Assembly: GCA_036676805.1 (NCBI GenBank)
Contig: JAKFCD010000074.1
Location: forward strand, 40,072-104,071
Reading direction: 5' to 3'
DNA from: Elusimicrobiota bacterium
GTDB lineage: Bacteria > Elusimicrobiota > Elusimicrobia > UBA1565 > UBA9628
Length of the DNA: 64,000 nucleotides
Part shown: positions 19,314 to 40,216 of the stretch, in pieces
How positions within the stretch are numbered: the stretch's first letter is position 1
How the letters are laid out: each line of letters starts with the position of its first letter
The notes under the pieces: generated by a model
What the model was told of the DNA's origin: nothing
The model's input: only the letters and a program-made list of their open reading frames with translations
The model's database searches: none
Program-made: the position numbers and the translations under genes

Positions 19314-19544
19314 TCAGGACGGGCAGCCGCCGCCGCCGCAAGGGCCGCGGCGTCCGCAGGGAGGGCTCGAGGGGGCGCTTTTTCCTTTAGAGGACACCTT
19401 GGGCACGCGGTCGCTGACGCGGACGATCTCGCCGCTCTGTTTATCGTAGCGGTAGGTGCCGGTCGCGGCTTCGTCGGCCGGGGCTTTGCGGGAACGCTTC
19501 GCGGGCTTGGTCGGCATGTTTTTGATTATACCTCGTATTCTCAT
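19314..19544 (-). CDS. small basic protein with a Cys/Gly-rich tail (hypothetical)
   Basis: 76 aa: MRIRGIIKNMPTKPAKRSRK...CGRRGPCGGGGCPS. GC3 is high. Its ATG overlaps the TGA of the GT39 gene (ATGA) and its stop is 6 nt before the aminopeptidase start. Confidence 0.4.
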   Translation of the reverse strand: MRIRGIIKNMPTKPAKRSRKAPADEAATGTYRYDKQSGEIVRVSDRVPKVSSKGKSAPSSPPCGRRGPCGGGGCPS

Positions 19545-21052
19545 CTTCGTTTCGCCCCTTCGGTTGGGCTCTTCGCGCCCAATGAGGTCCCGGCGAGCAG
19601 CGCGGCGACCTGCTCCCCCGTAGCGATCGACACCGCCGGGCCGCCGAGCCAGCGCTTTTCATCGAGCACGACGCAGGGGCCCAGCCGCCGCAGGCGAGCG
19701 CGCTCCAGCACCCCGTTATAGAGGGGCAGGCCGGGATAGTCGACGCCTTCGGCCGCCTCCGCGACGAGAAAGTGCGGGCGCTCGGGCAGATAGTAGCCCC
19801 GCATCGGCAGGTAGTAATAGGTGTCGAGATAGACGAGGGGAAGGCGCCGGTCGGTGCGGCGGATCGAATCGGCCAGGCCGCCCAGCCGGGGATCGACGAC
19901 GAGCCCCGAGATGAAATAGCCGACGGCTCCGGCAAGAACGAGCGCCCCGAGCGTCCGGCGCGCGGCCGAAGCGGCCCGGCCGCGCCGCGAGATCTCGAGC
20001 GCCGCGAGCAGGTAGAGGATCGGGGCGATCGGCGCGAAGTAGCGGGCCTGCGTCACGGGGCGCCCTAAGAAGAGCTCCGCCGCGGCGGTCAGGGCGACGA
20101 AGACGGCCGCGTGCCAGAGCAGAAAGTCGAGCGCGCGAAGCTCCGGCTCGTCGTCCTCGCGCCGGACGAGGCGAGCCGCGGCCAGGGCGGCCAGGGCCAA
20201 AACGAACGCTCCGATCGCGGGCACGAGCCAGGAGGGCAGGAGCAGGCCGAGGTAGGTGACGTCGAAGAACAGGGTTCCCAGCAAGCCGCATAAATGGCGA
20301 AAGGTGAGCGGGTCGCCGACGGCCAGGTCGCCTCGGTGCATGCCGAACTGCGCCATGAAGGATCCGAGCCAGGGCAGGAAGGCCGCCGCGACGCAGGCGT
20401 GCGCCGCGAGCCAGGCGCCCAGCTCCGGCGGCGAGCGCCGCCAGCGGCGCAGCAGCCAGGCCGCGTGGGCGGCGAGGATCAGCGCGAAATAATAATGAGC
20501 GTAGAGCCCGAGGACGGCGAGCGCGGCGTACCCCGCCCACAGCCGTCCCGTCGGGCGCCGCGCGAGCTCCCACGTCAGGAGCGCCTCGCACACGACGATC
20601 AGCGAGAGCAGGGCGTAGACGCGTCCGTCCTGCGAGAAGTGCAGCCAGTAGGACGACGCGGCCGCGAGGGCCAGGGCGATAAGGCGCGCGCGCTCGGGCA
20701 GCAGGCGCCCGGCCAGGCTCCAGAACGCGGCGAGAGCCCCGATCCCGCAGGCCGCGGAGAAGACGCGCAGGCCGATGCGCGGATCGGCGAAGAACGGAAG
20801 CCAGGCGTGCATCAGGAGGGAATACAGGGGCGGGCTGACCTCGAAGCGCAGGAGAAACGAGTGCAGGAGCGGCAGCGGCCGGCTCGCGACGAGCAGGCTG
20901 AGGGCCTCGTCGAACCACAAGGACCGGCTTCCGAGGAACGAGAGGCGCAGGGCGGCGCCGATGACGAGCGCGGCCATCGCCGGGGTGGCGCGAACGCGAA
21001 GGGCGCGGTCGAGGAGGGAGGGGGCGCCGGCGTTCGGCGGGACAGAACTCAC
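19541..21052 (-). CDS. glycosyltransferase family 39 (PMT/ArnT-like, GT-C fold) membrane protein
   Basis: 503 aa with a GTG start and about 11 TM helices. SLWFDEALSLLVA...YSLLMHAW is the typical GT39/ArnT N-terminal loop, including the DE motif. Confidence 0.8.
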   Translation of the reverse strand: MSSVPPNAGAPSLLDRALRVRATPAMAALVIGAALRLSFLGSRSLWFDEALSLLVASRPLPLLHSFLLRFEVSPPLYSLLMHAWLPFFADPRIGLRVFSAACGIGALAAFWSLAGRLLPERARLIALALAAASSYWLHFSQDGRVYALLSLIVVCEALLTWELARRPTGRLWAGYAALAVLGLYAHYYFALILAAHAAWLLRRWRRSPPELGAWLAAHACVAAAFLPWLGSFMAQFGMHRGDLAVGDPLTFRHLCGLLGTLFFDVTYLGLLLPSWLVPAIGAFVLALAALAAARLVRREDDEPELRALDFLLWHAAVFVALTAAAELFLGRPVTQARYFAPIAPILYLLAALEISRRGRAASAARRTLGALVLAGAVGYFISGLVVDPRLGGLADSIRRTDRRLPLVYLDTYYYLPMRGYYLPERPHFLVAEAAEGVDYPGLPLYNGVLERARLRRLGPCVVLDEKRWLGGPAVSIATGEQVAALLAGTSLGAKSPTEGAKRR

Positions 21053-21053: not shown

Positions 21054-22421
21054 GTGGGATTATGTCAAAATACCGTCGTGAGGCTCTCCGTCGTCATTCC
21101 CGCCTATAACGAGGAGGACCGCCTCCCCGCGACCTTGGAGAGGGTTCGGCGCCGCGTCGGCGCCTCGGGCTGCGAGATCATCGTCGTCGACGACGGCAGC
21201 CTCGACCGGACCGCCGCCGTGGCCGAGAGCATGGGCGCTTCGGTGCTGCGGCTTGGGAAGAACGGCGGACGCGGCGCGGCCGTCCGGGCGGGGGTCGGGG
21301 CCGCGCGCGGCGAGCTCGTCCTGGAGATGGACGCCGACGGCAGCGTGGACGCGGAAGCCATCACCCGCTTCGCCGAGTATTTCGAGCGGCATCCGGGCGT
21401 GGACGTGCTCATCGGCAGCCGCAACGCCCGCGGCTCCGTCGTCGTCGTGCCGCAGCCTTTTTTGCGCGTTTTCCTGGGCGGCTGCTTCCTTCTCGCCGCC
21501 AAGGCACTCTTCGGCTGGGACGTCACGGACTACACGCTCGGCTTCAAGATGTTCCGCAAGGAGGCGGCCGGCGACGTCATGCGCCATCAGTTCGACGCGG
21601 GATTCCTCGCCGAGGCCGAGCTCGTGGTGGCGGCTCGGGGCCGCGGGTGGCGCACCCAGGAGCTGCCCGTGCGCTGGGCCGAGCACGGCAACTCGAAGGT
21701 CCGGCCTTGGCGGGAGTCGTGGCGCTCGCTGCGGGGCCTGGCCGCCCTCGTCGCCCGCTCGCTGCGCGGCGCCTACGATCCGGACCCGGGCGGGCAGTCC
21801 TTCTCGGCCGCCAAGCGGCGGACGACGGGGCTATATCGCGGCCTCGGGTGGCCGTCGCTGTTCGCCCGGATCCGCTTCTTCACGGCGCCGTACGGCGGGC
21901 TCGAGCCGCACGTGCCGCGCGAGGGCCTCATCGTCGATCTCGGCTGCGGGTATGGGACGTTCTCGAATCTATTGGGGCTCATGGGGCCGGGCCGGCGCGT
22001 CGTGGGCCTCGACCTCGACGAGGCGAAGCTCAGGCACGCGCCGCGCGGCCTCGGCAACGTGACCTTCCTCGGCGGCGACATCCGGACGGCCGTGACCGAG
22101 CCGGCCGACGCCATTCTGCTGATCCACGTGCTCCATCACCTGGGCTCCTACGAGGAGCAGGAGCCGCTCCTCGCCTCCTGCCGTCAAAAGCTGAAGCCGG
22201 GAGGGCGCCTCGTCGTCTGCGAGGTCGACCGGCGGCCCTACGCCAAGTACCTGCTCGGCCTGCTCGCCGACACCTTGCTCTATCCCGGCGACGACATCTT
22301 CTACCGCTTCCCCGGCGAGCTCGCGCCGATCATCGAGAGCTGCGGCTTCCGGGTCGACACGATGCGCAGCGACGCGGGAACGCCTTTCGCCCACGTCACC
22401 TACGTCGCCGTCAAGCGCTAG
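21054..22421 (+). CDS. fusion protein: GT2 polyprenol-phosphate glycosyltransferase (Ppm1/DPM1-like) domain plus C-terminal class I SAM methyltransferase domain
   Basis: LSVVIPAYNEEDRLPATL...VVDDGSLDRT...EMDADGS is GT2. IVDLGCGYGTFS...LKPGGRLVV is the MT domain. The start is GTG 21054 (or GTG 21078), 1 bp from the divergent GT39 start. The table ORF start 20775 is rejected because it overlaps the GT39 gene. Confidence 0.75.
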   Translation: MGLCQNTVVRLSVVIPAYNEEDRLPATLERVRRRVGASGCEIIVVDDGSLDRTAAVAESMGASVLRLGKNGGRGAAVRAGVGAARGELVLEMDADGSVDAEAITRFAEYFERHPGVDVLIGSRNARGSVVVVPQPFLRVFLGGCFLLAAKALFGWDVTDYTLGFKMFRKEAAGDVMRHQFDAGFLAEAELVVAARGRGWRTQELPVRWAEHGNSKVRPWRESWRSLRGLAALVARSLRGAYDPDPGGQSFSAAKRRTTGLYRGLGWPSLFARIRFFTAPYGGLEPHVPREGLIVDLGCGYGTFSNLLGLMGPGRRVVGLDLDEAKLRHAPRGLGNVTFLGGDIRTAVTEPADAILLIHVLHHLGSYEEQEPLLASCRQKLKPGGRLVVCEVDRRPYAKYLLGLLADTLLYPGDDIFYRFPGELAPIIESCGFRVDTMRSDAGTPFAHVTYVAVKR

Positions 22422-24780: not shown

Positions 24781-24831
24781 GTGAGCTCCTCCGTAACGAG
24801 GAGTACGACACGCCCGGCGGGATAAGGTTCC

Positions 24832-24850
24832 AACTGTTTCCAGAAACAGT
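24832..24850. promoter_or_regulatory. palindromic motif aaCTGTttccagaaACAGt (CTGT-N8-ACAG), copy 1
   Basis: It is located 52 nt upstream of the VIT-VWA start and 27 nt after the anti-sigma stop. It is identical over 18 bp to the reverse complement of 61332..61350. Confidence 0.5.
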
Positions 24851-24877
24851 CGGCGCCGTCCCCGACTCGGAAGGGCG

Positions 24878-26011: not shown

Positions 26012-26538
26012 GCGGATACCTTGTCGAGCAGGACCTTGAGCTTGGCGCGGGCGCGGAACAGGCGCGACTTGACGGTGCCCTCGGCGAGGCCTAAAACCTC
26101 GCCGATCTCGGCGTAGGAGCGTTCCTCGAGCTCGCGCAGGACGACGATGGCCCGGTCGTCCTGATCGAGCTGAAGCAAGGCTTTCTGCACCACGGCGTTC
26201 GTTCCCTCCTTTTCGAGCTCCGTATCGAGCGGGGCGTCGTTTCCTTTCGGCTCGTACACCGGCTCGTCGTCTTCCTCGTTCCCGAACGCCCCGAACGAGA
26301 TCGTCTTCCAGAATCCCCGGCTCTTCTCGGCCCGCACCCGGTTCTTCCAGGTGTTGACCGTGATGGTGTACACCCACGTCGAAAGCTTGCTGTCGCCCCG
26401 GAACTTGGGCAGGGCGCGCAGGGCCCGGATCAGGGCGTCCTGCGCCAGGTCCTCGGCGTCGGAGCGGTTCCCCGTGAGCCGCAGCGCCACGTTGAACACG
26501 AGCTGACTATGTTCCTCGAGGAACTGAGACTCCGGCAT
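26008..26538 (-). CDS. RNA polymerase ECF-type sigma-70 family sigma factor
   Basis: 176 aa. Region 2 reads LVFNVALRLTGNRSDAEDLAQDALIRA. Region 4 reads LRELEERSYAEIGEVLGLAEGTVKSRLFRARAKL. Confidence 0.9.
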   Translation of the reverse strand: MPESQFLEEHSQLVFNVALRLTGNRSDAEDLAQDALIRALRALPKFRGDSKLSTWVYTITVNTWKNRVRAEKSRGFWKTISFGAFGNEEDDEPVYEPKGNDAPLDTELEKEGTNAVVQKALLQLDQDDRAIVVLRELEERSYAEIGEVLGLAEGTVKSRLFRARAKLKVLLDKVSA

Positions 26539-26545
26539 CGGCTGA

Positions 26546-26573
26546 TAGGACCCGGGAGCGGTCAGAATGTTCC
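26546..26573 (-). promoter_or_regulatory. tentative ECF-type autoregulatory promoter (GGAACA, 16-nt spacer, GTCcta) just upstream of the sigma gene
   Basis: The minus strand reads aaaGGAACAttctgaccgctcccggGTCCTAtcagccgATG. It would give a nearly leaderless transcript. Confidence 0.25.
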
Positions 26574-26574
26574 T

Positions 26575-28208: not shown

Positions 28209-29420
<1,212 letters not shown>

Positions 29421-29505: not shown

Positions 29506-30573
29506 TCAGCGCGCCTCGTCGATGGCGGCGCCGGCGGCGGTCAGCGCTTCGCGGGTCGGGGCGATCGCCCAGACGGCGGGCTTGTCCCGGTCGGTGACGG
29601 CGAACAGCAGGCGTCCGTTCGCGGGGTCCTCTCCGAGAAGCTTCCCTTCGTGGGACGTCCAAGGGGCGCTCCAGCGCCGCCCCCCTTTCTCCAGGACGAG
29701 CAAAACCCGCGGGGCGAGGAAGTCCTTGCCGGTGTCGTTGCGCCGGGAGGGGTCCTTGGCTACGGCGTAGAGGCTGCGGCTCGTCTCGACGGCGGTCTCG
29801 ATCTCGCCGTCGGCCTCGAGCAAGGGGACGCGGCGTCCGATCTGGGGATCCCCCGCCTCGAGGACGAAGGTCCCGGTCTCCGACATCCAGCGCGCCGACA
29901 GCGCGGTCCCGTCCGGGCGAAGCGCCAGCGGCGCGCCGGTCAGCGCCACGCGCCACTCGGCGGTCCGGCGGCCGTCGCGCAGGTCGTAGACCGCCATGCG
30001 CGGCCGCTCGGTCTGCTTCTCCGCGACGAGGAGATAGGGCTCCTCGAGCAGAAGCCCCCGCCACGCCGCCGGACCGTCGAGCAGGCCGCCGGCGCCGGTC
30101 CTCCCGAAGGCCTTCCAGAGGAGGCCCTTTTCGCCGTTCCAGACGGCGATCGGGTCGGGCGACCAGGCGGGGTGCCCGAGCGTCACGACGCCGCGGACCG
30201 GATGCTCCGACAGGATTTTTCCGGCGTCCGCGTCCACGACGAGGAGGACGCGTTCCGAGGGCTCGCTGCGAGAGGCGGCGCCGACCTTGCCCGCCTCGAG
30301 CAGGACGCGCCGGCCGTCGCGCGACAGGGCGAGATGCTCCCCGAGGACGAAGCCTTTGAGGCGCCTGCGCAGCCGCGCGCCCGAGGCGAGGCCGGAGACG
30401 ACGAGGTAGGTCCGGTCGGGAAAGCGCCCGTCGACGAAGGCCAGGCGCCGCGACGAGGGGCTCCAGGAGAACCCCTGCGCGCCGGTGGCGCTCTCGAGCC
30501 GCTCGACGCCGGGCGGCAGGCCGTCCGAGCAGGCGGCCAAGGCCAGCAGCGCGAGCAAAGTCGCGCGCCTCAT
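29506..30573 (-). CDS. lipoprotein with a predicted beta-propeller (TolB/WD40-like) fold
   Basis: 355 aa. It has a lipobox LLALAAC and repeated blade-like segments. I recognise no catalytic motif. Confidence 0.6.
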   Translation of the reverse strand: MRRATLLALLALAACSDGLPPGVERLESATGAQGFSWSPSSRRLAFVDGRFPDRTYLVVSGLASGARLRRRLKGFVLGEHLALSRDGRRVLLEAGKVGAASRSEPSERVLLVVDADAGKILSEHPVRGVVTLGHPAWSPDPIAVWNGEKGLLWKAFGRTGAGGLLDGPAAWRGLLLEEPYLLVAEKQTERPRMAVYDLRDGRRTAEWRVALTGAPLALRPDGTALSARWMSETGTFVLEAGDPQIGRRVPLLEADGEIETAVETSRSLYAVAKDPSRRNDTGKDFLAPRVLLVLEKGGRRWSAPWTSHEGKLLGEDPANGRLLFAVTDRDKPAVWAIAPTREALTAAGAAIDEAR

Positions 30574-30577
30574 GGTT

Positions 30578-31621
30578 CTAGGACCGGATATTGAGGACTG
30601 CCGCCTCGAAGACGGAGATGTTCTCCCGGACGTGGCCGTCGGGGCCGATGATGCAGTTGGTCAGGCGCACGCCCTCTCCGACGGTGACGTTCTCGAAGAG
30701 GATGCATTTTTCCAGGCGCGCGTCCTTGCCGATCCGCGCGCGGTCGCCGATGACGGTATGGGGGCCGACCACGGCGCCCGCGGCCACGCGCGAGCCCTTG
30801 CCGATGAGCACGGGCGCCTCGAGCCGGGCCTTGGGGTCGATCATCGCGCCGGCCTCCACCCAGACGCCCTTGCGGATCTCGGCGCCGGGAATGTTGATCT
30901 GGGACTTGCGGTCGAGGCAGTCGATCTGCGCGCGGCGGTACTCGGCGAGGTTGCCGACGTCGCACCAGTAGGCGTCGGTCTCGTAGGCGTAGATCGGCTT
31001 CTTCAGCTTGAGCAGCTTGGGCCAAAGCTCGTGGCCGAAATCGTAGGGCTTGCCCTTGGGCAGCAACTTGAGAATCTCGGGCTCGAAGAGATAGATGCCG
31101 GTGTTGACCTTGTTGGAGAATACGTCGCCCCAGGAGGGCTTCTCGAGGAAGCCCTTGATCTTCTGGCCGCCGTCGGTCAAGGTGACGCCGTACTCGAAGC
31201 GGCCGTCGACGCGCTTGGTCGCCATCGTCGCGACCGAGCCGCGCTTGCGGTGGAACTGCCACATCGCGGTGAGGTCGATGTCGGAGAGCCCGTCGCCCGA
31301 CATGACGAAGAACGGGCCGTCCTTGAAGAAGCTCTCGACCTTCTTGATCGAGCCCGCCGTGCCCATCAGCTTGGGCTCATGCGAGTAATGGATCTTCAGG
31401 CTCCAGCGCGAGCCGTCGCCGCAGTAGCCGCGCACCTGCTCGGGATGCATGTGCAGGTTGACCATGACCTCCTCGACGCCGTGCTTGAGCAGGTTGTCGA
31501 GGACGTGATGGATCACGGGCCGGTTGACGACGGGCACCATGGGCTTGGGCGTCTCGTAGGTCAGGGGGCGCAGGCGCGTTCCCGCGCCGGCCGCCAACAG
31601 CATCGCTTTTTTCGGGAACAT
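30578..31621 (-). CDS. NDP-sugar pyrophosphorylase (mannose-1-phosphate guanylyltransferase-like) with a C-terminal left-handed beta-helix
   Basis: 347 aa. MLLAAGAGTRLRPLTYETPKPMVPV is the nucleotidyltransferase G-loop. C-terminal hexapeptide repeats follow. Confidence 0.85.
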   Translation of the reverse strand: MFPKKAMLLAAGAGTRLRPLTYETPKPMVPVVNRPVIHHVLDNLLKHGVEEVMVNLHMHPEQVRGYCGDGSRWSLKIHYSHEPKLMGTAGSIKKVESFFKDGPFFVMSGDGLSDIDLTAMWQFHRKRGSVATMATKRVDGRFEYGVTLTDGGQKIKGFLEKPSWGDVFSNKVNTGIYLFEPEILKLLPKGKPYDFGHELWPKLLKLKKPIYAYETDAYWCDVGNLAEYRRAQIDCLDRKSQINIPGAEIRKGVWVEAGAMIDPKARLEAPVLIGKGSRVAAGAVVGPHTVIGDRARIGKDARLEKCILFENVTVGEGVRLTNCIIGPDGHVRENISVFEAAVLNIRS

Positions 31622-31631
31622 GATTCGACCT

Positions 31632-33053
31632 CTAGGCGTTCAGGTTGGGCGCGACCCACTTCTTGGCCATGTCGAGCAGGCCCTGGGTCCTCTCGGCCTT
31701 GTCGCTCTCGGCGTAGACGCGCATGAGGGGCTCGGTGCCCGAGGGGCGCATCAGCAGCCAATGCCCGTCCTCGAGGACGATCTTGAGGCCGTCGATGGAG
31801 ATGAGCTCCTTGATCGCGGTGCCGAGCAGCTTCTTGGGCAGTTTTTTTATCAACTTCTGCGTCCACAGCGCCTTGTCCGCGACGGCCTTGTGGATGCGGT
31901 AGTCGATGCGCTTGTAGTGGCTCGCGCCGAAGCGGGTCTCGACCTCCTTCCAGAGCTGAGAAGGCGTCTTGCCGGTGACGGCCATCATCTCGAGCATCAG
32001 CAGCGCGGTGAGCATGCCGTCGCGCTCGGCGATGCCGCCCTTGGTCGCCCAGGCGTAGCCGCCGGACTCCTCGCCGGCGATGTCGGCCTCCCCCGTGGCG
32101 ATGCGCTCGGCGACGTGCTTGAACCCGACGGGAAGCTGCTCGAAGGGGATGTTTTTCTCCTTCGCGATGCGCTCGGCGAGATAGCCGAGCGAAACGGACT
32201 GCACGATCTTCTTGGCGTACTTCTTCTTCTCGACGAGATAGAGGACGATCATCGGAAAGACCTGGCAGGGCGTCAGGTATCTGCCGTTCTCGTCGATGAG
32301 GCCGAACCGGTCGGCGTCCCCGTCGAGCGCCAGGCCCACGGCCGCCTTGTTCTTCTTCACCGCGTCCGTCAGGGCCGCGAGGTACTGCTCGATGGGCTCC
32401 GGGTGGACGCCGCCGAAGAGAGGGTCATGCTTGCCGCGGATCTCGACGAGGTTCTTGACGCCGAGGACGTCGGCCATGAGGCCGGAGCCGGCGCCGTGCA
32501 TGTAGTCGATGACGAGCGGCTTCTTGAGCTTCGCCTTGATCTTGGGAAGGTCGGCGCGCGACTTGAGATATTGAAGATAGACGTCGCGGAAGGACTTCGT
32601 CTTGATCTCGGCGGCGCGCGTCGGCGCGGTGCGGTCCACCCAGGCTTCGACGCCCTTCGTGACGGGATCGAGCGCGGCGCGGCCGTCGATCTTGATCTTG
32701 ACGCCGTTGTATGAAGGAGGATTATGGCTGGCCGTTACCATGACGCCGACCCCGCCGAGCTTCTTCGTCATGTAGCTCACGGCGGGGGTCGGCAGGGCCT
32801 CGGCCATGAGGACCGGGTGCATCTGATTGGCCTCGAGCACCTTGGCGATCTCGCGCGCGAAAGCGTCGGACTGGAAGCGCTTGTCGTAGCCGATCACCAT
32901 CGGGCCGGAGAGGGGGCCCTTCTTGTCCTTGATCTGCTCCTCCTTGACGTAGTCGGCGATCGCCTGGGCGACCCGCCGGCAGTTCTGGAAGGTGAAGTCC
33001 CTGGCGATCACGCCGCGCCAGCCGTCGGTGCCGAACTTTATGGGATCCGCCAT
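31632..33053 (-). CDS. phosphomannomutase/phosphoglucomutase
   Basis: 473 aa. It has GTDGWRG and the active-site TASHNPPSYNGVKI, plus the GDADR metal-binding loop. Confidence 0.9.
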   Translation of the reverse strand: MADPIKFGTDGWRGVIARDFTFQNCRRVAQAIADYVKEEQIKDKKGPLSGPMVIGYDKRFQSDAFAREIAKVLEANQMHPVLMAEALPTPAVSYMTKKLGGVGVMVTASHNPPSYNGVKIKIDGRAALDPVTKGVEAWVDRTAPTRAAEIKTKSFRDVYLQYLKSRADLPKIKAKLKKPLVIDYMHGAGSGLMADVLGVKNLVEIRGKHDPLFGGVHPEPIEQYLAALTDAVKKNKAAVGLALDGDADRFGLIDENGRYLTPCQVFPMIVLYLVEKKKYAKKIVQSVSLGYLAERIAKEKNIPFEQLPVGFKHVAERIATGEADIAGEESGGYAWATKGGIAERDGMLTALLMLEMMAVTGKTPSQLWKEVETRFGASHYKRIDYRIHKAVADKALWTQKLIKKLPKKLLGTAIKELISIDGLKIVLEDGHWLLMRPSGTEPLMRVYAESDKAERTQGLLDMAKKWVAPNLNA

Positions 33054-33054
33054 G

Positions 33055-33405
33055 TTATTTTCCTCTCCGTCCGTAATCGTCCTGCAGGCGCACGACGTCC
33101 GACAGTTCCGGCGTGGACACCTCGATGAGGGTCACGCGCCCTCGCGTCGCTTCAAAGCGGTGGATCGTCCTGGGCGGAACCTCGAAGGCGGTTCCGGGGC
33201 CGACGGTCCTGGTCTTTTTCCCGAGCGTGAGCTTCAGGCGGCCGCGCTGCACCAACAGGGTCTCGTGCTTGCGGCGGTGCAGCTGGAGGCTCAGGCGGTG
33301 GCCTTTCTCGATGACGAGGATCTTCCCCACGTATTTCCGGGTGCGGGCGAAGATCATCTCGTGGCCCCAGGGCTTGTGCACGCGCTCGATGAGCCCCAGT
33401 CTCAT
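33055..33405 (-). CDS. cupin domain protein (mannose-6-phosphate isomerase type II C-terminal-domain-like)
   Basis: The start MRLGLIERVHKPWGHEMIFART overlaps the upstream stop (ATGA). Cupin motifs SLQLHRRKHETLLV and GPGTAFEVPPRTIHRF are present. The 50-aa Arg-rich extension in the table is rejected. Confidence 0.75.
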   Translation of the reverse strand: MRLGLIERVHKPWGHEMIFARTRKYVGKILVIEKGHRLSLQLHRRKHETLLVQRGRLKLTLGKKTRTVGPGTAFEVPPRTIHRFEATRGRVTLIEVSTPELSDVVRLQDDYGRRGK

Positions 33406-34422
33406 AGCTGGCTGTAGTCCCCGACCGAGGAGCCGCCGGCGAGCGCGGCGCCGGGGCCGAGCACCGCGTGGGTGCCCACGCGCGCCTTCGGCCCGATGAC
33501 GCAGCGCTCGAGGCGCGCGCCGTCTCCGATCACGGCTCCGTCGAGGACGACGCAATCCGTGAGCTGGGCGCCCCGGCCGATGACGACCTTCGAGCCGAGG
33601 CTCACCGAGCCGGCGAAGCGCGCGAAGGGGGCTATCTTCGTTCCGGCTCCGGCGGTCACGCGCGCGCCGTCGGCGCTCTTAATAGCCCGCGCGCGGGGCC
33701 CGGACTTAAACGGAGTCCGGCCCTGCAGCAGGTCCAGGTGCACCTGCAGGTACGCCTTGACCGAGCCGATGTCGATCCAGTAGCCGGGCGCCACGTAGCC
33801 GGCGATGCGCGCTCCGGCCGCCAGGCGTTCGGGGAAAAGGCCGCGCTCGAGGGAATAAGGCTTGCCCTGCGGGAGGTGCTCGAGCACGGACGGCTCGAAA
33901 AGATAGGCGCCGGCGTTCACCGAATTGGTCACGACCTCGTCCCAGGAGGGCTTCTCGAGGAAGCGCCGGACCATCCCCTTATCGTCGGTGAGCACGAGGC
34001 CGTACCGCGTCGGATCCTTCACCCGGGTGAGCGCGATCGAGATCTCCGCGCGCCGGGCGCGGTGGAAGCGAAGGAACGCCCCCAGGTCGAAGGCGTTGAG
34101 CACGTCGCCGTTGAGAACCAAGGTCGTTCCTTTGAGCAGGGGCTCCGCGTTCTTGATCGCGCCGCCCGTGCCGAGAGGGAGGCGCTCGCGCACGTAGGAG
34201 ATCTTGAGGCCCAGGCGCCGTCCGTCGCCGAAGGCCCGGCGGAAGGTCTCGGCGCGGTAGGAGGTGCAGAGCACCACCTCCCGGACCCCGTGGCGGCTCA
34301 GGATCTGGAACTGGTATTCAAGGAAGGGGCGATTCATGACGGGCAGCAGCGGCTTGGGCGTCTCCAAAGTGAAGGGACGCAGCCGGGTGCCCATGCCTCC
34401 GATGAGGATGACCGCTATCACG
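33402..34422 (-). CDS. second NDP-sugar pyrophosphorylase (nucleotidyltransferase plus LbH domains)
   Basis: The GTG start gives MIAVILIGGMGTRLRPFTLETPKPLLPV. It has a C-terminal hexapeptide-repeat domain. The 904-aa table ORF (33402..36116) is an artifact that extends into the antisense of the 34542..36692 gene. Confidence 0.8.
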
Positions 34423-34541
34423 CTCCGCTTCGCTTCGCGTGATATTCTTTCATAGATTCTTTCATAAGGCGGGATTCTACAAAAATAGATCAACCCGGTG
34501 TCAGGCTTACGCAAAATTGCGTATGATGACCACGCTCTCAT

Positions 34542-36692
34542 ATGGCTTCGAACCTCTACATCCCGCCGTCTCAGACGGCCAACCGCAAGATTCTCGTTTT
34601 CAGCGTCCTGGGCCTGGTTTTCTTCCTGGCGGCCGAAGCGCTTCTCCTGCGGTCCTTCATCCGCGCCGACACCCGCCCCCCGGCCTGGGACCAGGCGATC
34701 CACCTGGAGATCGCCCTCGATTACCGCGAGGCCCTCAAGGAAGGGCGTCTCGCCGACGCCTGGTTCCTGGCGCCGAAGCCGGGGATGCCGCCCTTTCCGC
34801 CCGCCTACCATCTTCTCCTCATGCGCGCCTACGACTCGGCGAACCCGGCCAACGCCGCCCTCTGGGTCAACTGGTTCTACCTGGCGCTGCTTTCGGTTTC
34901 GATTTTCGGGATCGCCTGGCGCTTCCGCCCGGACGAGACCGCGCTGGCCGCCGTCGTCCTCTTCGTCGCTTCGCCCGCGATCCAGGACCTGCTGACGACC
35001 CAGCTCGTGGACCTGCCGATGGTGGCGCTGGCCGCCGCCGCCTATTGGGCCCTGCTCGCCTCGGACGAATTCACGCGCTGGATCCCGGCCCTGCTCTTCG
35101 GCGTCCTGCACGCCGCGGGCATGCTCCACAAGTGGTCGTTCTTCAGCTACATGCTCCCCGCCTATTTCATCGCGCTGCGGTCCCTGCGCGACAGGCGCAC
35201 CGCGCTCGTCATGCTCTCGGCCGCCGCGCTGTCGGCGGCCCTCATCGTGCCGTGGTATTCCGCCCATCTGGCACTTCTGCCGTCCCGCCTCGTGCAGGCC
35301 TCCGCCGACTTCGCGGTCCCGGTGTGGACCCCGGGCGCCTGGCTCGTCTACGCGAGCCAGGCTTCGAATCAGATCGGGCCGCTCGTCTGGCTGCTCGGCA
35401 CGATCGGCCTGCTCGCCCCGCAGTACCGCCGCAGCCGCGAGCAAGGCTGGATCCTGCTCGCCTGGTTCGCGGCCAGCTACGTCTTCTGGACGATCGTGCC
35501 CAACCGCCAGCTGCGCTTCCTCCTGCCCGGCCTCGTTCCCATCGGCATCGCCTTCTGCGCGACCTGGCCCAAGGCGGTGACGTGGGGCGCGGTGGCCCTG
35601 CAGCTGTTCGGGCTGTTCAACTTCTACGGCGGCTGGATCGGACCGGTCAGGCTGAGCCTGCCCTTTTATAACCCCGAATTTTTCGCCAACCGGCCGGCGG
35701 CGAGGGAGGACTGGAAGACCGAGGAGATCCTCCGCCGGATCGACGCCGAGCGCGATCCGTCCTTGCCCATCAGCAACGTGACCCTCGTCGCCAACGACGC
35801 CCATTTCAACGCGCCGACCTTCCACTGGATGCAGCGCCGCCTGGGCCTCGAGCGGGTGCGCATGCGCGGCGTCAACCGGCGGCTGTCCGAGCTCTCCGAG
35901 TTCGTGCTCCTCAAGGATCCGAAGGTCGGGCCCGCGGGAGTGATCTCCGGCCTGCCGGAGGCGTCGGCGGAGATCCGGGACCCGAGGACCTGGTTCGGCA
36001 AGGCCTACGAGGAGATCGCGCGCTGGCCGCTGCCCGACTCGAACAACGCGATCCTCTACCGCCAGCGCCGCGCTCCGAAGAAGCCCTACGAAGGGAAGTT
36101 CCTCGTCTATCAGCACTACACCGCGGGCAAGGTCGTGATCAACGACCTCAAGGCGGTCTTCGGCCCCTGGGACGACGGGAAGTCGGTGTACAAGACCATG
36201 AGCCTCACCGTCGGCCGGCTCAACGTCCGCGGGCTGATCCTCGACGGAACGGACATCGATCTGGTCAACGTCCGGTTCATCCCGATCATGAAGAAGGATC
36301 GCGAGGACGACTGGGTGGACATCCGGCTCCTGCGCCTGGAGCGCCTGCGGGTCAAATCGCTCGACGTGGGCGCCGACGAGCTTAAGGCGTTCCTTTCCGA
36401 GCGCGTGAAGGGCCTCAAGGTCGACGAGCTGACGCTCGACAAGACCGTCCGGATCGCCGGTTCCTTCAACGGGAAGCCGGTCTCGGCCGAGGCCGGCCTG
36501 CGCCTTCTCGACGCCCCGCGCCGGCTGAAGATCGACATCATGTCCGTGCGCCTCGCGGGCATCAACGTGCCGCTCTCGGTGTTCCGGGAGATCAAGGAGC
36601 TCACCATCCCGCTCTACCCGAATCCCGAGACGCCCTTCGCCATCGAGCTGCCCGGCCTCACGATCGCCGGCGGCCGCCTGACGATCCCTTAG
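34542..36692 (+). CDS. GT39/ArnT-like (GT-C fold) integral membrane glycosyltransferase with a large C-terminal extracytoplasmic domain
   Basis: 716 aa with about 11 TM helices in the first 360 aa. The first periplasmic loop reads PPAWDQAIHLEIAL. An AT-rich upstream intergenic region separates it from the divergent pyrophosphorylase gene. Confidence 0.75.
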   Translation: MASNLYIPPSQTANRKILVFSVLGLVFFLAAEALLLRSFIRADTRPPAWDQAIHLEIALDYREALKEGRLADAWFLAPKPGMPPFPPAYHLLLMRAYDSANPANAALWVNWFYLALLSVSIFGIAWRFRPDETALAAVVLFVASPAIQDLLTTQLVDLPMVALAAAAYWALLASDEFTRWIPALLFGVLHAAGMLHKWSFFSYMLPAYFIALRSLRDRRTALVMLSAAALSAALIVPWYSAHLALLPSRLVQASADFAVPVWTPGAWLVYASQASNQIGPLVWLLGTIGLLAPQYRRSREQGWILLAWFAASYVFWTIVPNRQLRFLLPGLVPIGIAFCATWPKAVTWGAVALQLFGLFNFYGGWIGPVRLSLPFYNPEFFANRPAAREDWKTEEILRRIDAERDPSLPISNVTLVANDAHFNAPTFHWMQRRLGLERVRMRGVNRRLSELSEFVLLKDPKVGPAGVISGLPEASAEIRDPRTWFGKAYEEIARWPLPDSNNAILYRQRRAPKKPYEGKFLVYQHYTAGKVVINDLKAVFGPWDDGKSVYKTMSLTVGRLNVRGLILDGTDIDLVNVRFIPIMKKDREDDWVDIRLLRLERLRVKSLDVGADELKAFLSERVKGLKVDELTLDKTVRIAGSFNGKPVSAEAGLRLLDAPRRLKIDIMSVRLAGINVPLSVFREIKELTIPLYPNPETPFAIELPGLTIAGGRLTIP

Positions 36693-36696
36693 CGCG

Positions 36697-38166
36697 TCAG
36701 CGGCCGAGCGGGAAGATCACGAGCTTGCCGTCGTCCCAGACCGGGGCGCCTTGGGCGCGAAGCCGCTTCCACATCTTGCCGTCGGGCTCGGCGAACATCC
36801 CGCGCTTCTCCGAGGCGATGAAGCGCGCGCCCTTGGCGGCATGCTCGTCAAGGAAATCCTGGACGGCGCCCACCGGCTGCGGGTCGAGCTCGCCCGACCA
36901 GCCGCGCCGGCCGAGATAGTACAGCAGGACCGACGGGGCGGGGCAGTTGGTCAGGAACAGGTCGCCCGGGGCGCTGACCGCCGCGGCGGCCCTGCCGGCG
37001 CCCTCGACGTAATCGTAGCCTTGACGGTACCAATGGCTGATGCGCAGGGCCGAGTGGGCGGGAACCGCGACGATCAGCAAGGCCAGGCCCGCGAACGCGA
37101 GGGCGCGGTATTTTTGAGGGGCGGCGGCTGCCTTCTCGCGCAGGGCCGCGACGCCGACGCCGATCAGGCCCGCCGCGACGGGCGCCAGCGGAAGCGCCGT
37201 GTACTCATGGGAGTGGGAATAGCCCGCCATCGCGAAAAGATGCGCGATCACGCCGAAGAACCAGGAAAGCCAGAACGCGTCTCGCTTATCCCATAAGACT
37301 CGGCGCGCCCCTACGGCCAGGAACGCGAGGCCCGCATAGGTCAGGACGACCTCGGGTATGCGGCTGAAGAGCTGGAACTGGATGAAGTACGGAAGGCGGG
37401 CATAGTCGAGCAGCGAGGAGTATTCCCCGGCGCGCGTCGGCACGACGTAGACGCCTTGGCGGGCGTGAAGGTACCAGGCGATGACGCCGCCCATCGCCGC
37501 GAGGCCGGCGGCGTGCATGCGCCAGTCCATCAGGGCCCCGCGTCCGAGCTTGCGCCAGGTCAAGCCCGCCAGCGGGATGAGGAGGTGGGCGTAGGGAAGC
37601 TTGAGCCCGACCGCGATGAACGCGCAGAACGCCGCGCCCGCCCACGCGCTCCAGGGGCGATCCGGCTCGAGGTGCCGGCTCCAGAAGCCGAGAGAGGCGA
37701 CCAGCGCGAGGAGCGCGGTCGCCTCGGGCTGAACGGTGCGGCCGAAGTAGACCTCGACGGGAAGGAGCGAGAAGATCGAGGCGCCCCAAAGCGCGGCCTC
37801 GCGCCCGAATTCCCTCTCGAAGAGGCCGAAGAGGAGCAGCGCCGTGAGCAAGGAGGCGGCCACGGAGAGCAGGCGCCCCCATTTCTCGCCGAGCCCCGCA
37901 AGGGGCCACAGCTTTCCGTACAGCCACATGTAGACCGGCAGTTCCGTCGCGGCGAGCCGGTCGGAGGGTCCGTCCCAGTCGATGCGGGGCTGATGGATCG
38001 GGCGGCCCCCTTGGTGATAGCCGCGCGCGATCGAGGCGGTGTTGACCTGGCGGTGGAAGTGGTAGTCGAGCAGCGGCGCGGTGAGGCCTTTCGCGTGGAC
38101 GAGGAGGGAGAAGAAGGCGACGACGGCCAGGCATAGGCCGCGGCGCTCGAGGACCGGTCCGATCAT
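36697..38166 (-). CDS. GT39/GT83 ArnT-like (GT-C) membrane glycosyltransferase
   Basis: The start MIGPVLERRGLCLAVVAFFSLLVHA overlaps the upstream stop (ATGA). ARGYHQGGRPIHQPRIDWDGP...ELPVYMW and multiple TM helices are present. The 858-aa table ORF is rejected as an alternate-frame extension over the methyltransferase gene. Confidence 0.75.
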   Translation of the reverse strand: MIGPVLERRGLCLAVVAFFSLLVHAKGLTAPLLDYHFHRQVNTASIARGYHQGGRPIHQPRIDWDGPSDRLAATELPVYMWLYGKLWPLAGLGEKWGRLLSVAASLLTALLLFGLFEREFGREAALWGASIFSLLPVEVYFGRTVQPEATALLALVASLGFWSRHLEPDRPWSAWAGAAFCAFIAVGLKLPYAHLLIPLAGLTWRKLGRGALMDWRMHAAGLAAMGGVIAWYLHARQGVYVVPTRAGEYSSLLDYARLPYFIQFQLFSRIPEVVLTYAGLAFLAVGARRVLWDKRDAFWLSWFFGVIAHLFAMAGYSHSHEYTALPLAPVAAGLIGVGVAALREKAAAAPQKYRALAFAGLALLIVAVPAHSALRISHWYRQGYDYVEGAGRAAAAVSAPGDLFLTNCPAPSVLLYYLGRRGWSGELDPQPVGAVQDFLDEHAAKGARFIASEKRGMFAEPDGKMWKRLRAQGAPVWDDGKLVIFPLGR

Positions 38167-39158
38167 TCCTTGAACGCGTACATCTCGAAAGTCCCGCCCG
38201 ACCGCAAAAGGGTCTCGAGAGCGGTCGCGACGACGACGAAGGGAACGAGGACGGGAAGCAGCAGGACGTGGGCCGCGGTCTGGAAAGGGTAGCGAAGGGC
38301 CGTGTCGGTGCGCGCCGTCGAGTTCTTGAGCAGGGAGTAGAGAAGGTTGAAGCGGAAGCCGGCGGCGTTGAAGAGGGACTGGAGCAGGCCGTAGGGGTTC
38401 TGCTCGAAGCTGAAATGGTCGAGCTGGACGACGCGGAAGCGGTGGCGCTGAAGGATCGCGTCGAGGGATTTGACGGTGAAGTGAAAATAGTGGCGGGGGG
38501 CGTCCACGTGGAACCAGCTGCCGCCGAACACGCGGGCCTGCCAGCTCCCGTAGTTCGGGACCGCGATGAAGAGGACGCCGCCGGGCTTGAGGAGCTCGTG
38601 GGCGCGCGCGACCGCGGCGACGGGATTGGCGAAGTGCTCGAGCGTGTGGCAGAAGATCACGGCGTTGTAGCGGTTCTTCTCGTGGGGGGAGGTGAGGAAA
38701 TCCCCGGTGGCCACCTCGAGCTTGAGGACGCGGCGGGCATGGTGGGCCGCGGTCTCGCTGAGCTCGAGGCCGTGGGCCTCGTAGCCGAGGTCGCGCATGT
38801 AGGAGAGCATCATGCCGCGGCCGCAGCCGACGTCGAGGACGGGCCCGCGGGGGACCCGGTTGAAGAGCACGGCGGCGCGCCGCTTTCGGAACCAGCGCAC
38901 CATGGCCTCGAAGAGCGGATTGAAGCGGACGTTTTCCTTCCCGTAGTATTGCTCGGGATACCACTTCCCGATCTCGTCGCCCGGAACCGGGGGCCAGGTT
39001 CGCCCGAAGCCGCAATCCGGGCAGGCGAGAAGCTCGAATCCCTCCTCGTTCGAAGGGGAGGCCGTCTCGGGGCCGTCGAACCCGCAGGCCGGGCAGCGCG
39101 CGGGGCGCCGGTCCTGGGAGGCGAGCTCGGGCTGAAAGCGGCTGGAGGAGGTCGTCAC
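38163..39158 (-). CDS. class I SAM-dependent methyltransferase with an N-terminal CxxC...CxxC zinc ribbon
   Basis: 331 aa with a GTG start. It has CPACGF...CPDCGF and VLDVGCGRGMM (motif I), then LKPGGVLFIAVPN. Confidence 0.85.
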   Translation of the reverse strand: MTTSSSRFQPELASQDRRPARCPACGFDGPETASPSNEEGFELLACPDCGFGRTWPPVPGDEIGKWYPEQYYGKENVRFNPLFEAMVRWFRKRRAAVLFNRVPRGPVLDVGCGRGMMLSYMRDLGYEAHGLELSETAAHHARRVLKLEVATGDFLTSPHEKNRYNAVIFCHTLEHFANPVAAVARAHELLKPGGVLFIAVPNYGSWQARVFGGSWFHVDAPRHYFHFTVKSLDAILQRHRFRVVQLDHFSFEQNPYGLLQSLFNAAGFRFNLLYSLLKNSTARTDTALRYPFQTAAHVLLLPVLVPFVVVATALETLLRSGGTFEMYAFKE

Positions 39159-39184: not shown

Positions 39185-40216
39185 ATGCAGAGACTCCTGG
39201 CCGTGGTCCTCGCGCTGTCCGCCGGCTCGATGACCGCCCACGGCCTTTTGCCCGACGAAGAGAACACGATCAAGGTGTTTAAATCCGCTTCGTCCTCGGT
39301 CGTCTACGTAACCAACGTCGCTATCACCCATAACCTCAACATGGACGAGCATGCCATCCCCCAGGGGACCGGCTCGGGCTATGTTTGGGACCGCCAGGGC
39401 CACATCGTCACCAATTTTCACGTCGTGCAGGGCGGCCACGCGTTTCTCGTGACGCTCGGCGATCAGACCCAGCTCGAGGCGCGGCTGATCGGCTCCGACC
39501 CGACGAAGGACATCGCCGTGCTCAAGGTCGAGAAAAGCCACGAGAAGCTCGTCCCCGTGCGCATGGCCAAGTTCGAGACCCTGCAGGTCGGCCAGAAGAC
39601 GATCGCGATCGGCAATCCGTTCGGCCTGGACCATACCCTGACGACGGGCGTGATCTCCGCGCTCGGCCGCGAGGTCCAGGGCGTCAGCGGCATCACGATC
39701 CGCGACATGATCCAGACCGACGCGGCGATCAACCCGGGGAACTCCGGCGGCCCCCTGCTCGATTCGGACGGGAACCTCATCGGGATGAACACGATGATCT
39801 TCAGCCGCTCGGGCGGCAGCTCGGGCATCGGCTTCGCCGTGCCGGTGTCGTTCATCGCCCGCATCGTCCCCGAGCTGATCAAGTTCGGCAAGGTCGTGCG
39901 GCCGGGGATGGGCATCACCATCCTGAGCACGGGGCAGAAGTACTACCTCATCGGCGACCGGCCCGGCGTCGTCGTCAACGAGGTCGCTCCCGGCGGGCCC
40001 GCCGCGAAGGCCGGGCTGCGCGGGCTGCGGCGCTTCCGGGGCGGGCGCGTGGCGCCCGGCGACATCATCGTCGGCGTCGAGTCCTTCGTCGTGCGCGACT
40101 TCGACGACCTCTACAACGCCCTCGACCGCTTCAAGCCGGGCGACACGGTGACCGTGAAGATCGAGCGGAGCGGCAAGCCGATGTCCTTGTCCGTGAAGCT
40201 CGTCAACATCCACTAG
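39185..40216 (+). CDS. HtrA/DegP-family serine protease (trypsin-like S1C plus PDZ domain)
   Basis: 343 aa with a signal peptide. The catalytic triad context is HIVTNFHVV, DIAVLKV and GNSGGPLL. A C-terminal PDZ domain is present. Confidence 0.9.
   Translation: MQRLLAVVLALSAGSMTAHGLLPDEENTIKVFKSASSSVVYVTNVAITHNLNMDEHAIPQGTGSGYVWDRQGHIVTNFHVVQGGHAFLVTLGDQTQLEARLIGSDPTKDIAVLKVEKSHEKLVPVRMAKFETLQVGQKTIAIGNPFGLDHTLTTGVISALGREVQGVSGITIRDMIQTDAAINPGNSGGPLLDSDGNLIGMNTMIFSRSGGSSGIGFAVPVSFIARIVPELIKFGKVVRPGMGITILSTGQKYYLIGDRPGVVVNEVAPGGPAAKAGLRGLRRFRGGRVAPGDIIVGVESFVVRDFDDLYNALDRFKPGDTVTVKIERSGKPMSLSVKLVNIH

Follow-up and report, generated by a model that had tools for sequence, protein, structure and literature searches.

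A GT-C glycosyltransferase carrying an LmeA-like domain, paired with sugar-activation genes in Elusimicrobiota, is a candidate for modifying a lipid-anchored acceptor

Introduction

When genes for making nucleotide sugars lie beside membrane glycosyltransferases in an uncultured bacterium, do they form one system, and what does that system modify? This question is raised by a stretch of 64,000 nucleotides (hereafter the window) from a high-GC uncultured Elusimicrobiota genome, in which nucleotide-sugar synthesis genes are indeed combined with GT-C enzymes at one locus. The original prediction saw there a candidate polyprenyl-P-mannose-dependent periplasmic system with three GT39/ArnT-like enzymes, glycosylating secreted proteins or a lipid. 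GT-C fold enzymes work at the periplasmic face of the membrane, with polyprenyl-phosphate sugars as donor.

Results

Gene content and the sugar-activation operon

Most of the predicted gene content was confirmed, namely PMM/PGM, the cupin, the GT-C enzymes, the zinc-ribbon methyltransferase and, upstream, a further GT-C with a GT2-methyltransferase (GT2-MT) fusion (Table 1). The exception was the second pyrophosphorylase, which had been placed on a plus-strand open reading frame (33468-34442) that has no Pfam match and the wrong codon-position GC pattern; the gene is instead NTP_A on the minus strand.

Table 1. Features of the locus in window coordinates.
Feature	Position	Strand	Remarks
GTC3, third GT-C, PMT_2, WFDEALS motif	19541..20980	-	PMT_2 34 bits
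GT2-methyltransferase fusion	about 21078..22421	+	divergent from GTC3
MetK, S-adenosylmethionine synthetase	28209..29420	-	all three S-AdoMet synthetase domains
Lipoprotein, lipobox LAAC	29506..30573	-	
NTP_B, second nucleotidyltransferase, NTP_transferase + LbH	30578..31621	-	
PMM/PGM phosphohexomutase	31632..33053	-	all four PGM_PMM domains
Cupin, PMI type II C-terminal family, 116 aa	33055..33405	-	PF01050
NTP_A, sugar-1-phosphate nucleotidyltransferase + LbH domain	33402..34421	-	PF00483 6e-49
Divergent intergenic region with promoter-like block	34422..34541		
GTC716, core gene, GT-C + alpha/beta + LmeA-like domains	34542..36692	+	716 aa
GTC489, second GT-C (ArnT/PMT_2-like), 489 aa	36697..38166	-	PMT_2 42.6 bits
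MT331, class I SAM methyltransferase	38163..39158	-	Methyltransf_23 1.5e-24

Two NDP-hexose pyrophosphorylases are present as predicted, sharing 38% identity. NTP_A had human GMPPB as its best PDB match (1.5e-53) and scored 320 bits against NCBIfam man1P_GTase_Rv, under the cutoff of 440; it is probably a GDP-mannose pyrophosphorylase. NTP_B scored 213 bits against the same model, and its best PDB match was 8x7s, a UTP-glucose-1-P uridylyltransferase (6.3e-70; GMPP enzymes at ~1e-45), which suggests that it is probably an NDP-glucose (UDP-glucose-type) pyrophosphorylase. Because NTP_B is UDP-glucose-like, mannose is a plausible rather than an established sugar for this locus. The cupin matched PF01050 at 42 bits (cutoff 23.6), its ATG overlaps the stop codon of NTP_A (ATGA overlap), and in relatives it is called as a gene of 115-117 aa; it is probably a mannose-6-phosphate isomerase whose translation is coupled to that of NTP_A. 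The best PDB match of PMM/PGM was the putative phosphomannomutase 1tuo of Thermus (1.4e-74). All three enzyme families of the route to GDP-mannose (PMI, PMM and GMPP) are thereby encoded at the locus, and the mannose activation originally proposed would be complete.

The lipoprotein gene had no Pfam or NCBIfam match and was rejected as a sugar enzyme. Its distribution is limited to the closest relatives (L010, L016, L036, L046 and L061, and weakly L019) and is a variable insertion outside the core. MetK lies downstream of the operon on the same strand; a functional tie between MetK and MT331 would be speculative.

GTC716 combines a GT-C domain with an LmeA-like domain

As predicted, the 716-residue enzyme carries some 350 extra periplasmic residues. 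GTC716 consists of three parts: a multi-helix transmembrane domain with the GT-C fold (aa 1-365), which places it in the GT-C superfamily, a small alpha/beta domain (about aa 390-510) and an LmeA-like beta domain, probably of the lipid-binding TULIP/beta-taco type (aa 512-716, encoded at nt 36075-36689). The extra region had been described as of unknown function; its beta part can now be tentatively assigned as LmeA-like, and the alpha/beta part has no family assignment of its own. In the window protein the LmeA-like domain scored 22.2 bits against PF11209 (LmeA), below the Pfam cutoff of 27.3. Among 18 aligned homologs, 12 matched this family (best E 1.5e-8), several homologs have precomputed PF11209 matches, and one (P0407) is named by NCBI as LmeA family. 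LmeA itself binds phospholipids in the periplasm and is a partner of MptA, a GT-C mannosyltransferase (PMC7643837). Proteins with this three-part architecture make up a large family, which is confined to Elusimicrobiota-like metagenomes.

The GT-C part matched PMT_2 weakly (28 bits, cutoff 26.1), and its best structural matches were ALG12, ArnT and Pmt4. Membership of GT39/Pmt was considered and rejected, as GTC716 matched PMT_2 only, with no match to PF02366 (PMT) or to a MIR domain, and has WDQ in loop 1 as well as the LmeA-like extra domain. An assignment to the ArnT family by sequence likewise failed: a profile of 22 family members retrieved no ArnT or Pmt sequence from the PDB at E<=1, and GTC716 has no ArnT NCBIfam match.

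Across 20 divergent members, spanning Man-type, paralog and LPS-type proteins, the first periplasmic loop (loop 1) has the invariant pattern [D/E/Q]43-x-R45-P46-x-x-W-D50-x-x-x-H54, and D157, K197, N321 and R325 are also invariant. The original prediction had suggested a check for a conserved DE or DD loop motif. In GTC716 the fixed acidic residue is D50 of WDQ, with D, E or Q at position 43; the GTC489 family, which is restricted to Elusimicrobiota, has invariant D33, H37, R38 and Q39 in loop 1; and the single GTC3 sequence reads WFDEALS. From its fold, GTC716 would use a polyprenyl-phosphate-linked donor at the outer face of the membrane. The predicted dependence on a polyprenyl-P-linked sugar fits this fold, but the conserved cluster contains neither a polyprenyl-P-sugar synthase (polyprenyl-P-mannose included) nor a flippase.

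Synteny of the GTC716 locus

The core arrangement was found again in ~50 independent Elusimicrobiota contigs, a clustering well beyond chance. The sugar operon, NTP_A foremost, adjoins GTC716 divergently in 49 of 53 loci, and this pairing is kept down to 41% identity while the right-hand neighbours of GTC716 are reshuffled. PMM/PGM was present in 43 of 45 loci and NTP_B in 31 of 38, MetK was linked in 25 of 33, and CoA-transferase genes are also syntenic. Almost every related locus, down to 45% protein identity, retains the intergenic block between GTC716 and NTP_A (GGATTCTACAAAAATAGA ... TATGATG), which appears to be a compact bidirectional promoter-like region. Two loci are without the sugar operon (L013 and L063, the latter within the Man clade of the tree), so the pairing can break, yet rarely does.

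The other two GT-C genes are not part of this arrangement. GTC489 lies directly downstream of GTC716 in just 23 of 49 loci and is split in CP096137. MT331, with an N-terminal zinc ribbon (CPACG...CPDCG) and a C-terminal hydrophobic helix, is found <=2.5 kb downstream in 32 of 48 loci, some of them without GTC489. Both genes are variable and GTC489 is accessory. GTC3 (which has a weak MT1671 mannosyltransferase match besides PMT_2) and GT2-MT form a separate module: GT2-MT, 13 kb upstream in the window, is always beside some GT-C or GtrA and, in other genomes, never beside the GTC716 cluster. In the PDB, GT2-MT matched the Dol-P-Man synthase of P. furiosus best (1.7e-15), with ArnC and GtrB next, and its homologs are named Dol-P beta-glucosyltransferase, some being fused to GtrA or PMT_2; by these matches its GT2 part would be a polyprenyl-phosphate glycosyltransferase of the DPMS/ArnC/GtrB-like type. 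GTC716, GTC489 and GTC3 show no mutual relationship at the BLAST level. The idea of three GT-C enzymes acting as one system must therefore be abandoned, since GTC3 and GT2-MT are elsewhere in relatives, about half of the loci lack GTC489 and only GTC716 is stably linked.

Distant homologs and paralogs

Six distant full-length homologs (23-29% identity, from genomes of 35-65% GC) were examined, and five of them sit within lipid A/core/Lpt operons. The typical run is LpxK - lipid A acyltransferase - GT9 or GT4 - WaaL-like - GmhB-like - family member - DUF3108; the GmhB-like gene is missing from L071, and in L072 and L074 the run continues with KdsB - KdsA - LptC/A/B. These LPS-embedded relatives, which a simple NJ tree places as the outgroup, have no mannose genes alongside. 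The family thus comes close to a situation that the original prediction had named as contrary to it, in which the relatives of the GT-C enzymes modify lipid A only. In the clade of the window, GTC716 is not within an LPS operon, and the link to LPS is made through the distant homologs. LptF/G genes, the sole LPS-type genes near GTC716 in the window, lie 5 kb downstream.

Paralogs of GTC716 in the same genomes adjoin DPMS/ArnC-like GT2 enzymes, GT4 enzymes and an initiating phosphoglycosyl transferase, neighbours that fit lipid-linked glycan chemistry. Like the LPS-type relatives, the paralog clusters are without the sugar operon genes.

Discussion

It is quite possible, and we tentatively favor this reading, that GTC716 glycosylates a periplasmic lipid-anchored acceptor, most probably LPS, with mannose as a plausible sugar. 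The fusion to a predicted lipid-binding domain, together with the position of the distant homologs, points to a lipid acceptor and, within the outer membrane, to a glycolipid rather than to proteins, and the secreted proteins originally proposed as acceptors are disfavored on the same grounds. Protein O-mannosylation of Ser/Thr residues in secreted proteases or adhesins, by a Pmt-like GTC716 and/or GTC489, is very improbable, as GTC716 lacks PF02366 and MIR matches, its extra domain is of a predicted lipid-binding and not a protein-binding type, and the gene context conserved in the family elsewhere is that of LPS biosynthesis; moreover, GTC716 resembles ArnT and ALG12 as much as Pmt, so the fold alone is no pointer to protein acceptors.

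In the favored reading, GTC716 would reside in the inner membrane with its active site toward the periplasm and would resemble its structural relatives (ArnT, Pmt and ALG12) in using a sugar carried on polyprenyl phosphate. The LmeA-like domain may grip the acyl or polyprenyl part of the lipid-anchored acceptor, most probably LPS (lipid A-core) en route to the Lpt machinery, while the GT-C domain attaches a hexose, most plausibly mannose in this clade, to the acceptor's glycan. The divergent operon (cupin, PMM/PGM, NTP_A and NTP_B), transcribed from the shared compact promoter region, would provide cytoplasmic nucleotide sugars, and a DPMS-like GT2 encoded elsewhere would charge polyprenyl phosphate with the sugar. 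GTC489 and MT331 would be optional additions that might supply one more sugar or a methyl group. There is a precedent for lipid A mannosylation by Und-P-Man and an ArnT-like enzyme in Francisella FlmF1/FlmK (PMC2233673).

The alternative that survives best concerns the sugar and is compatible with either acceptor. The operon may simply serve the cell's housekeeping need for GDP-mannose and UDP-glucose, as the UGPase-like NTP_B and the adjoining MetK allow, with GTC716 using another sugar; its adjacency to GTC716 may then reflect regulation and not substrate channelling. The synteny of MetK and the CoA-transferase genes, the absence of sugar genes beside LPS-type relatives and paralogs, and the lack of a DPMS-type GT2 in the cluster are all consistent with this. 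We nevertheless consider it unlikely, because the divergent pairing persists to 41-45% identity amid reshuffled right-hand neighbours, the shared promoter block is conserved and the pairing rarely breaks, L013 and L063 being the two loci of the set that lack the operon.

Less probable again is the elaboration of a lipoglycan or lipid-linked polysaccharide, as by MptA with LmeA or by Emb/Aft, in which GTC716 would extend or branch a chain of the mannan type, carried by a glycolipid or by a polyprenyl-PP-linked glycan instead of by LPS, and its fused LmeA-like domain would play the part that free LmeA plays for mycobacterial MptA. The likeness is considerable: both models bring together a GT-C enzyme, an LmeA-family domain, mannose activation genes nearby and a lipid-anchored acceptor. 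However, LmeA and MptA are separate proteins in mycobacteria, whereas GTC716 is a single polypeptide in a diderm, LPS-bearing phylum, and its GT-C part, a borderline PMT_2 match, has no established relationship to MptA, an alpha-1,6-mannosyltransferase of GT87. The annotated window genes include no PIM-type or polymer export genes, and the distant homologs sit in lipid A/core/Lpt operons, not polysaccharide clusters. Lipomannans are not known from outside the Actinobacteria.

A bolder extension of the favored reading, which we rate as a long shot, is that the GT-C/LmeA-like fusion is an unrecognised, phylum-wide part of LPS assembly, whose tubular domain hands lipid A-core between the ligase/Lpt machinery and the active site, coupling glycosylation to lipid transfer, and that in the high-GC clade a duplicate was rewired to the mannose operon to yield mannosylated lipid A/core. 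Glycosylation coupled to lipid transfer is a principle proposed, and never shown, for mycobacterial LmeA-MptA.

Among known systems, ArnT (PmrK, GT83), Francisella FlmK, Bordetella LgmB and Rhizobium RgtA-D glycosylate lipid A or core from polyprenyl-P-sugars. GTC716 differs from ArnT in lacking detectable sequence similarity by the family profile, in the ~200 additional residues of its LmeA-like domain and in having nucleotide-hexose synthesis genes alongside instead of an ArnC-type GT2 or a flippase. From Pmt (GT39) it is set apart by its predicted lipid-binding C-terminal domain and the LPS gene context of its distant homologs as well as by the missing PF02366 and MIR matches. Three-component periplasmic systems (GtrA/GtrB/Gtr*, ArnC/ArnEF/ArnT; PMC11127046) share a logic in which a cytoplasmic nucleotide sugar becomes a polyprenyl-P-sugar and is transferred by a GT-C enzyme outside the membrane. 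The pair of GT2-MT and GTC3 and the GTC716 paralog clusters, with a DPMS-like GT2 beside a GT-C, fit this pattern; the conserved GTC716 cluster, by contrast, has upstream nucleotide-sugar enzymes and neither GT2 nor flippase.

Practical impact is limited because there are no cultured hosts. If the favored reading is correct, the natural fusion of an LmeA-type domain with a GT-C enzyme would lend independent support to the proposed LmeA-MptA partnership in mycobacterial lipomannan synthesis and offer a model of how GT-C enzymes catch lipid-anchored acceptors, and GTC716 would represent a candidate new family of LPS-modifying enzymes in a phylum that is uncultured and little studied. The sugar would likely be neutral (mannose); in other bacteria such modification alters lipid A charge and immune recognition. 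It would also correct automatic annotation, as databases currently label GTC716-type proteins 'glycosyltransferase family 39' or 'hypothetical'.

GTC716 belongs to a family with a three-part architecture

The 716-residue GT-C glycosyltransferase of the cluster, GTC716, is very probably a periplasm-facing enzyme dependent on a polyprenyl-phosphate sugar, as judged by its predicted fold, conserved residues and topology. In the AlphaFold2 model (pLDDT 84), residues 1-365 form a helical membrane domain, ~390-510 a small alpha/beta domain and 520-716 a domain rich in beta structure. The family profile detected no solved structure at the sequence level, and the likeness to solved GT-C structures is one of fold comparison only; sequence tests placed GTC716 in neither GT83 nor GT39. 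All subfamilies share, in their first periplasmic loop, the invariant motif [D/E/Q]43-x-R45-P46-x-x-W-D50-[QE]-x-x-H54, and D157, K197, W198, N321 and R325 are likewise invariant; on these residues the enzyme looks catalytically competent. Where the original prediction had suggested looking for a DE or DD loop motif, the loop has an acidic D50 in every subfamily, followed by Q or E, and D, E or Q at position 43.

The extra domain to which the original prediction assigned no function is indeed there, but its C-terminal part can now be described as LmeA-like. These 205 residues score 22 bits in the window sequence against a PF11209 cutoff of 27.3, while among 18 homologs 12 do match this model, the best at E 1.5e-8, and one family member (P0407) is labeled LmeA family by NCBI. 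LmeA is a phospholipid-binding protein of the mycobacterial periplasm, required both to elongate mannan and to keep the GT-C mannosyltransferase MptA stable (PMC7643837). In the literature searched we found no description of a GT-C enzyme fused to an LmeA-like domain, and the value of the family lies partly in this gene-fusion link between the two.

Close homologs are all full length (713-723 residues) and from uncultured Elusimicrobiota, the nearest, at locus L010, being 95% identical. For two genes of the window, identical proteins are encoded on a 105-kb NCBI contig. When 1.8 billion cluster representatives were searched with the family profile, 195 clusters matched at E<=1e-30 and 799 at E<=1e-10; most are 680-790 residues long and match the profile end to end, so that the three-part architecture defines a sizeable family. 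Its few named members are listed only as "Elusimicrobia", "bacterium" or "bacterium F11".

Gene organization and conservation of the locus

Since the GC content of the window is ~69%, genes were told apart from the many spurious open reading frames by third-codon-position GC, and products were assigned by Pfam and NCBIfam scans.

Features of the GTC716 locus and its surroundings (positions in the window)
Feature	Position	Strand	Basis or remark
FecR-domain protein	7329-9152		
GTC3, third PMT_2 protein	19541-20980	-	Upstream; divergent from GT2-MT
GT2-MT, GT2-methyltransferase fusion	~21078-22421	+	Divergent from GTC3
VIT-VWA protein	22426-25059		
ECF sigma factor	26008-26574		
MetK	28209-29420	-	Pfam/NCBIfam map
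Lipoprotein, 355 aa, lipobox LAAC	29506-30573	-	No Pfam/NCBIfam match
NTP_B, NTP_transferase+LbH	30578-31621	-	Pfam/NCBIfam map
PGM/PMM	31632-33053	-	Pfam/NCBIfam map
PMI-type cupin	33055-33405	-	Pfam/NCBIfam map
NTP_A, NTP_transferase+LbH	33402-34421	-	Pfam/NCBIfam map
Intergenic region with conserved block	34422-34541		Between NTP_A and GTC716 starts
GTC716, 716-aa GT-C	34542-36692	+	Pfam/NCBIfam map
GTC489, 489-aa GT-C	36697-38166	-	Pfam/NCBIfam map
MT331, zinc-ribbon class I methyltransferase	38163-39158	-	Pfam/NCBIfam map
HtrA-like protease	39185-40216	+	Pfam/NCBIfam map
LptF/LptG-family LPS export permease	41694-42773		5 kb downstream of cluster

The pyrophosphorylase originally placed at 33468-34442 on the forward strand is an artefact, as its codon-position GC pattern is wrong and it matches no family; the true gene is NTP_A on the opposite strand, whose stop codon overlaps the cupin ATG in an ATGA. 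The lipoprotein gene is an insertion between NTP_B and MetK that occurs in the closest relatives only (L010, L016, L036, L046 and L061).

The window was compared by tblastn with 61 genome loci and several metagenome contigs, neighbors being counted only in loci with enough flanking sequence. NTP_A was divergent from and adjacent to GTC716 in 49 of 53 loci; PMM (43/45), NTP_B (31/38) and MetK (25/33) were found near it, MT331 lay within 2.5 kb in 32 of 48, and GTC489 was directly downstream in 23 of 49. Of the four loci that lack NTP_A, two keep the remaining operon genes. Even where GTC716 identity falls to 41-45%, the left-hand pairing is kept, with the right-hand neighbors replaced. That the sugar operon is merely a co-regulated housekeeping neighbor of GTC716 is an alternative we consider somewhat unlikely. 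One locus, L013 (CAZGVK010000185.1), has a 73% identical GTC716 and an overall GC of 0.57, with all the usual neighbors missing; chimeric assembly or a transfer may account for this, and we set the contig aside as possibly chimeric.

Further afield, the LptF/LptG-family gene is followed by a long open reading frame (both within 41694-43843), and in locus L002 two LptF/LptG genes stand side by side in the equivalent position, confirming that the host is a diderm, LPS-bearing bacterium. The VIT-VWA and ECF sigma factor genes keep their synteny with the cluster throughout the clade, the latter with an anti-sigma gene in relatives; these and the FecR-domain gene may be unrelated conserved neighbors.

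Predicted sugar supply

NTP_A is closest to GDP-mannose pyrophosphorylases (top PDB match human GMPPB, 1.5e-53). Its score with the mycobacterial ManB model is 320 bits, short of the 440-bit cutoff. NTP_A, the PMI-family cupin and PMM/PGM between them cover the whole path from fructose-6-P to GDP-mannose, and to this extent the mannose-activation cluster originally proposed stands. The other pyrophosphorylase, NTP_B, is 38% identical to NTP_A and clearly nearer a UTP-glucose-1-P uridylyltransferase (6.3e-70) than the GMPPs (~1e-45), so that a GMPPA/GMPPB-like regulatory and catalytic pair finds no support. From these similarities, the operon is likely to supply GDP-mannose as well as an NDP-glucose, and mannose is a plausible transferred sugar.

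The wider family and the acceptor

We placed six distant homologs, all full length, on their contigs (23-29% identity, genome GC 35-73%). Lipid A/core operons enclose five of them (L069, L071, L072, L073 and L074), the context of the sixth, L070, being uninformative. The common run is LpxK, lipid A acyltransferase, GT9 or GT4, WaaL-like ligase, GmhB-like phosphatase (missing from L071), the family member and DUF3108; L072 and L074 continue with PfkB kinase, KdsB, PyrG, KdsA, KdsC, LptC, LptA and LptB. A GT2 and a polysaccharide deacetylase precede LpxK in four of the five. An LgmA/LgmC/LgmB-like (ArnC/ArnD/ArnT-like) trio, considered on account of this GT2 and Polysacc_deac_1 gene, was rejected: the 258-residue GT2 best matches GmaR rather than ArnC or DPMS, and the deacetylase matches PgaB-type enzymes. 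The DUF3108 gene follows the family gene in all five LPS-embedded loci, usually directly, with one short gene between in L069 and L073, which suggests that its product is a conserved partner.

In the high-GC clade a second, paralogous GTC716 copy has for neighbors a DPMS/ArnC-like GT2, a Bac_transf initiating transferase, GT4 enzymes and proteins in which a GT-C is fused to a GT4. The fusions (L056 2286-4751, L058 6834-9242) are unusual proteins of ~800 residues that join an N-terminal PMT_2-type GT-C, a transferase of periplasmic type, to a C-terminal GT4 (GT-B) of cytoplasmic type. In an approximate, midpoint-rooted neighbor-joining tree the mannose-linked copies and the paralogs are sisters, with the LPS-embedded forms outside.

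Beyond fold and context, every functional step for GTC716 is one that we infer. Because of the fused lipid-binding domain and the gene contexts of the family, its acceptor is likely to be lipid-anchored. LPS is the leading candidate, which we put forward tentatively. Francisella FlmF1/FlmK offer a precedent for lipid A being mannosylated by way of Und-P-mannose and an ArnT-like enzyme, and lipid A that carries mannose has been described from Bdellovibrio and phototrophs as well (PMC2233673). The main alternative to LPS, a lipoglycan or Und-PP-linked polymer, is rather unlikely, and protein O-mannosylation, which is without specific support, is improbable. GTC716 would work like ArnT-type or three-component periplasmic glycosylation systems but without the adjacent GT2 and flippase. 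Its family is of value also as a candidate for LPS modification in a phylum that is uncultured; the literature searched held nothing relevant on LPS modification in Elusimicrobiota.

GTC489, GTC3 and GT2-MT

The original prediction joined all three GT-C proteins in one system, a view we abandon, as they have no BLAST-detectable similarity to one another and differ in synteny. GTC489 is Elusimicrobiota-specific, and one Asp of its loop 1 is invariant. It is dispensable, since it is missing from about half of the loci and is split in the only complete genome, CP096137.1 (L001/L025), where the ortholog beside GTC716 (12172-13388) consists of two open reading frames of 284 and 122 residues. An intact, 60% identical copy (P0517) is encoded on the same 3.8-Mb chromosome, apparently elsewhere.

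For the GT2 part of GT2-MT the closest match is Dol-P-Man synthase, followed by ArnC and GtrB, and homologs of this part are annotated as Dol-P glucosyltransferases, some fused to GtrA or PMT_2. GTC3 and GT2-MT do lie 13 kb from the cluster in the window, but this proximity is not conserved: in other genomes GT2-MT always adjoins some GT-C or GtrA gene and never the GTC716 cluster. GT2-MT with GTC3 (19541-22421) therefore makes up a periplasmic glycosylation module of its own. The fusion itself behaves as a portable unit for donor synthesis, its membrane partner differing from genome to genome (L066, L067 and L068): a PMT-like GT-C gene in L066, GT87 in L067, and, in a Methylomonas contig, GtrA with an unannotated 602-residue protein.

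The divergent intergenic region

Between the NTP_A and GTC716 starts is a conserved block, GGATTCTACAAAAATA(G/T)A...TATTATGATG/TATACT, with the consensus GGATTCTACAAAAATA...TAT(T/A)(A/C)T, which holds the same position in the short intergenic region of L002-L055 and is kept even at ~45% protein identity. The block reads as two putative back-to-back -10-like boxes. The NTP_A start codon of the relatives is only ~8-10 nt from the -10-like box, suggesting that their NTP_A mRNA may be near-leaderless. Compared with the 95% identical L010, the window has a ~35-nt insertion in the NTP_A leader (34422-34470) that holds a tandem TTCTTTCATA(G/A) duplication. NTP_A starts here at a GTG (34421), which is overlapped by the TGA of an out-of-frame 15-codon uORF, MKESMKEYHAKRSGA.
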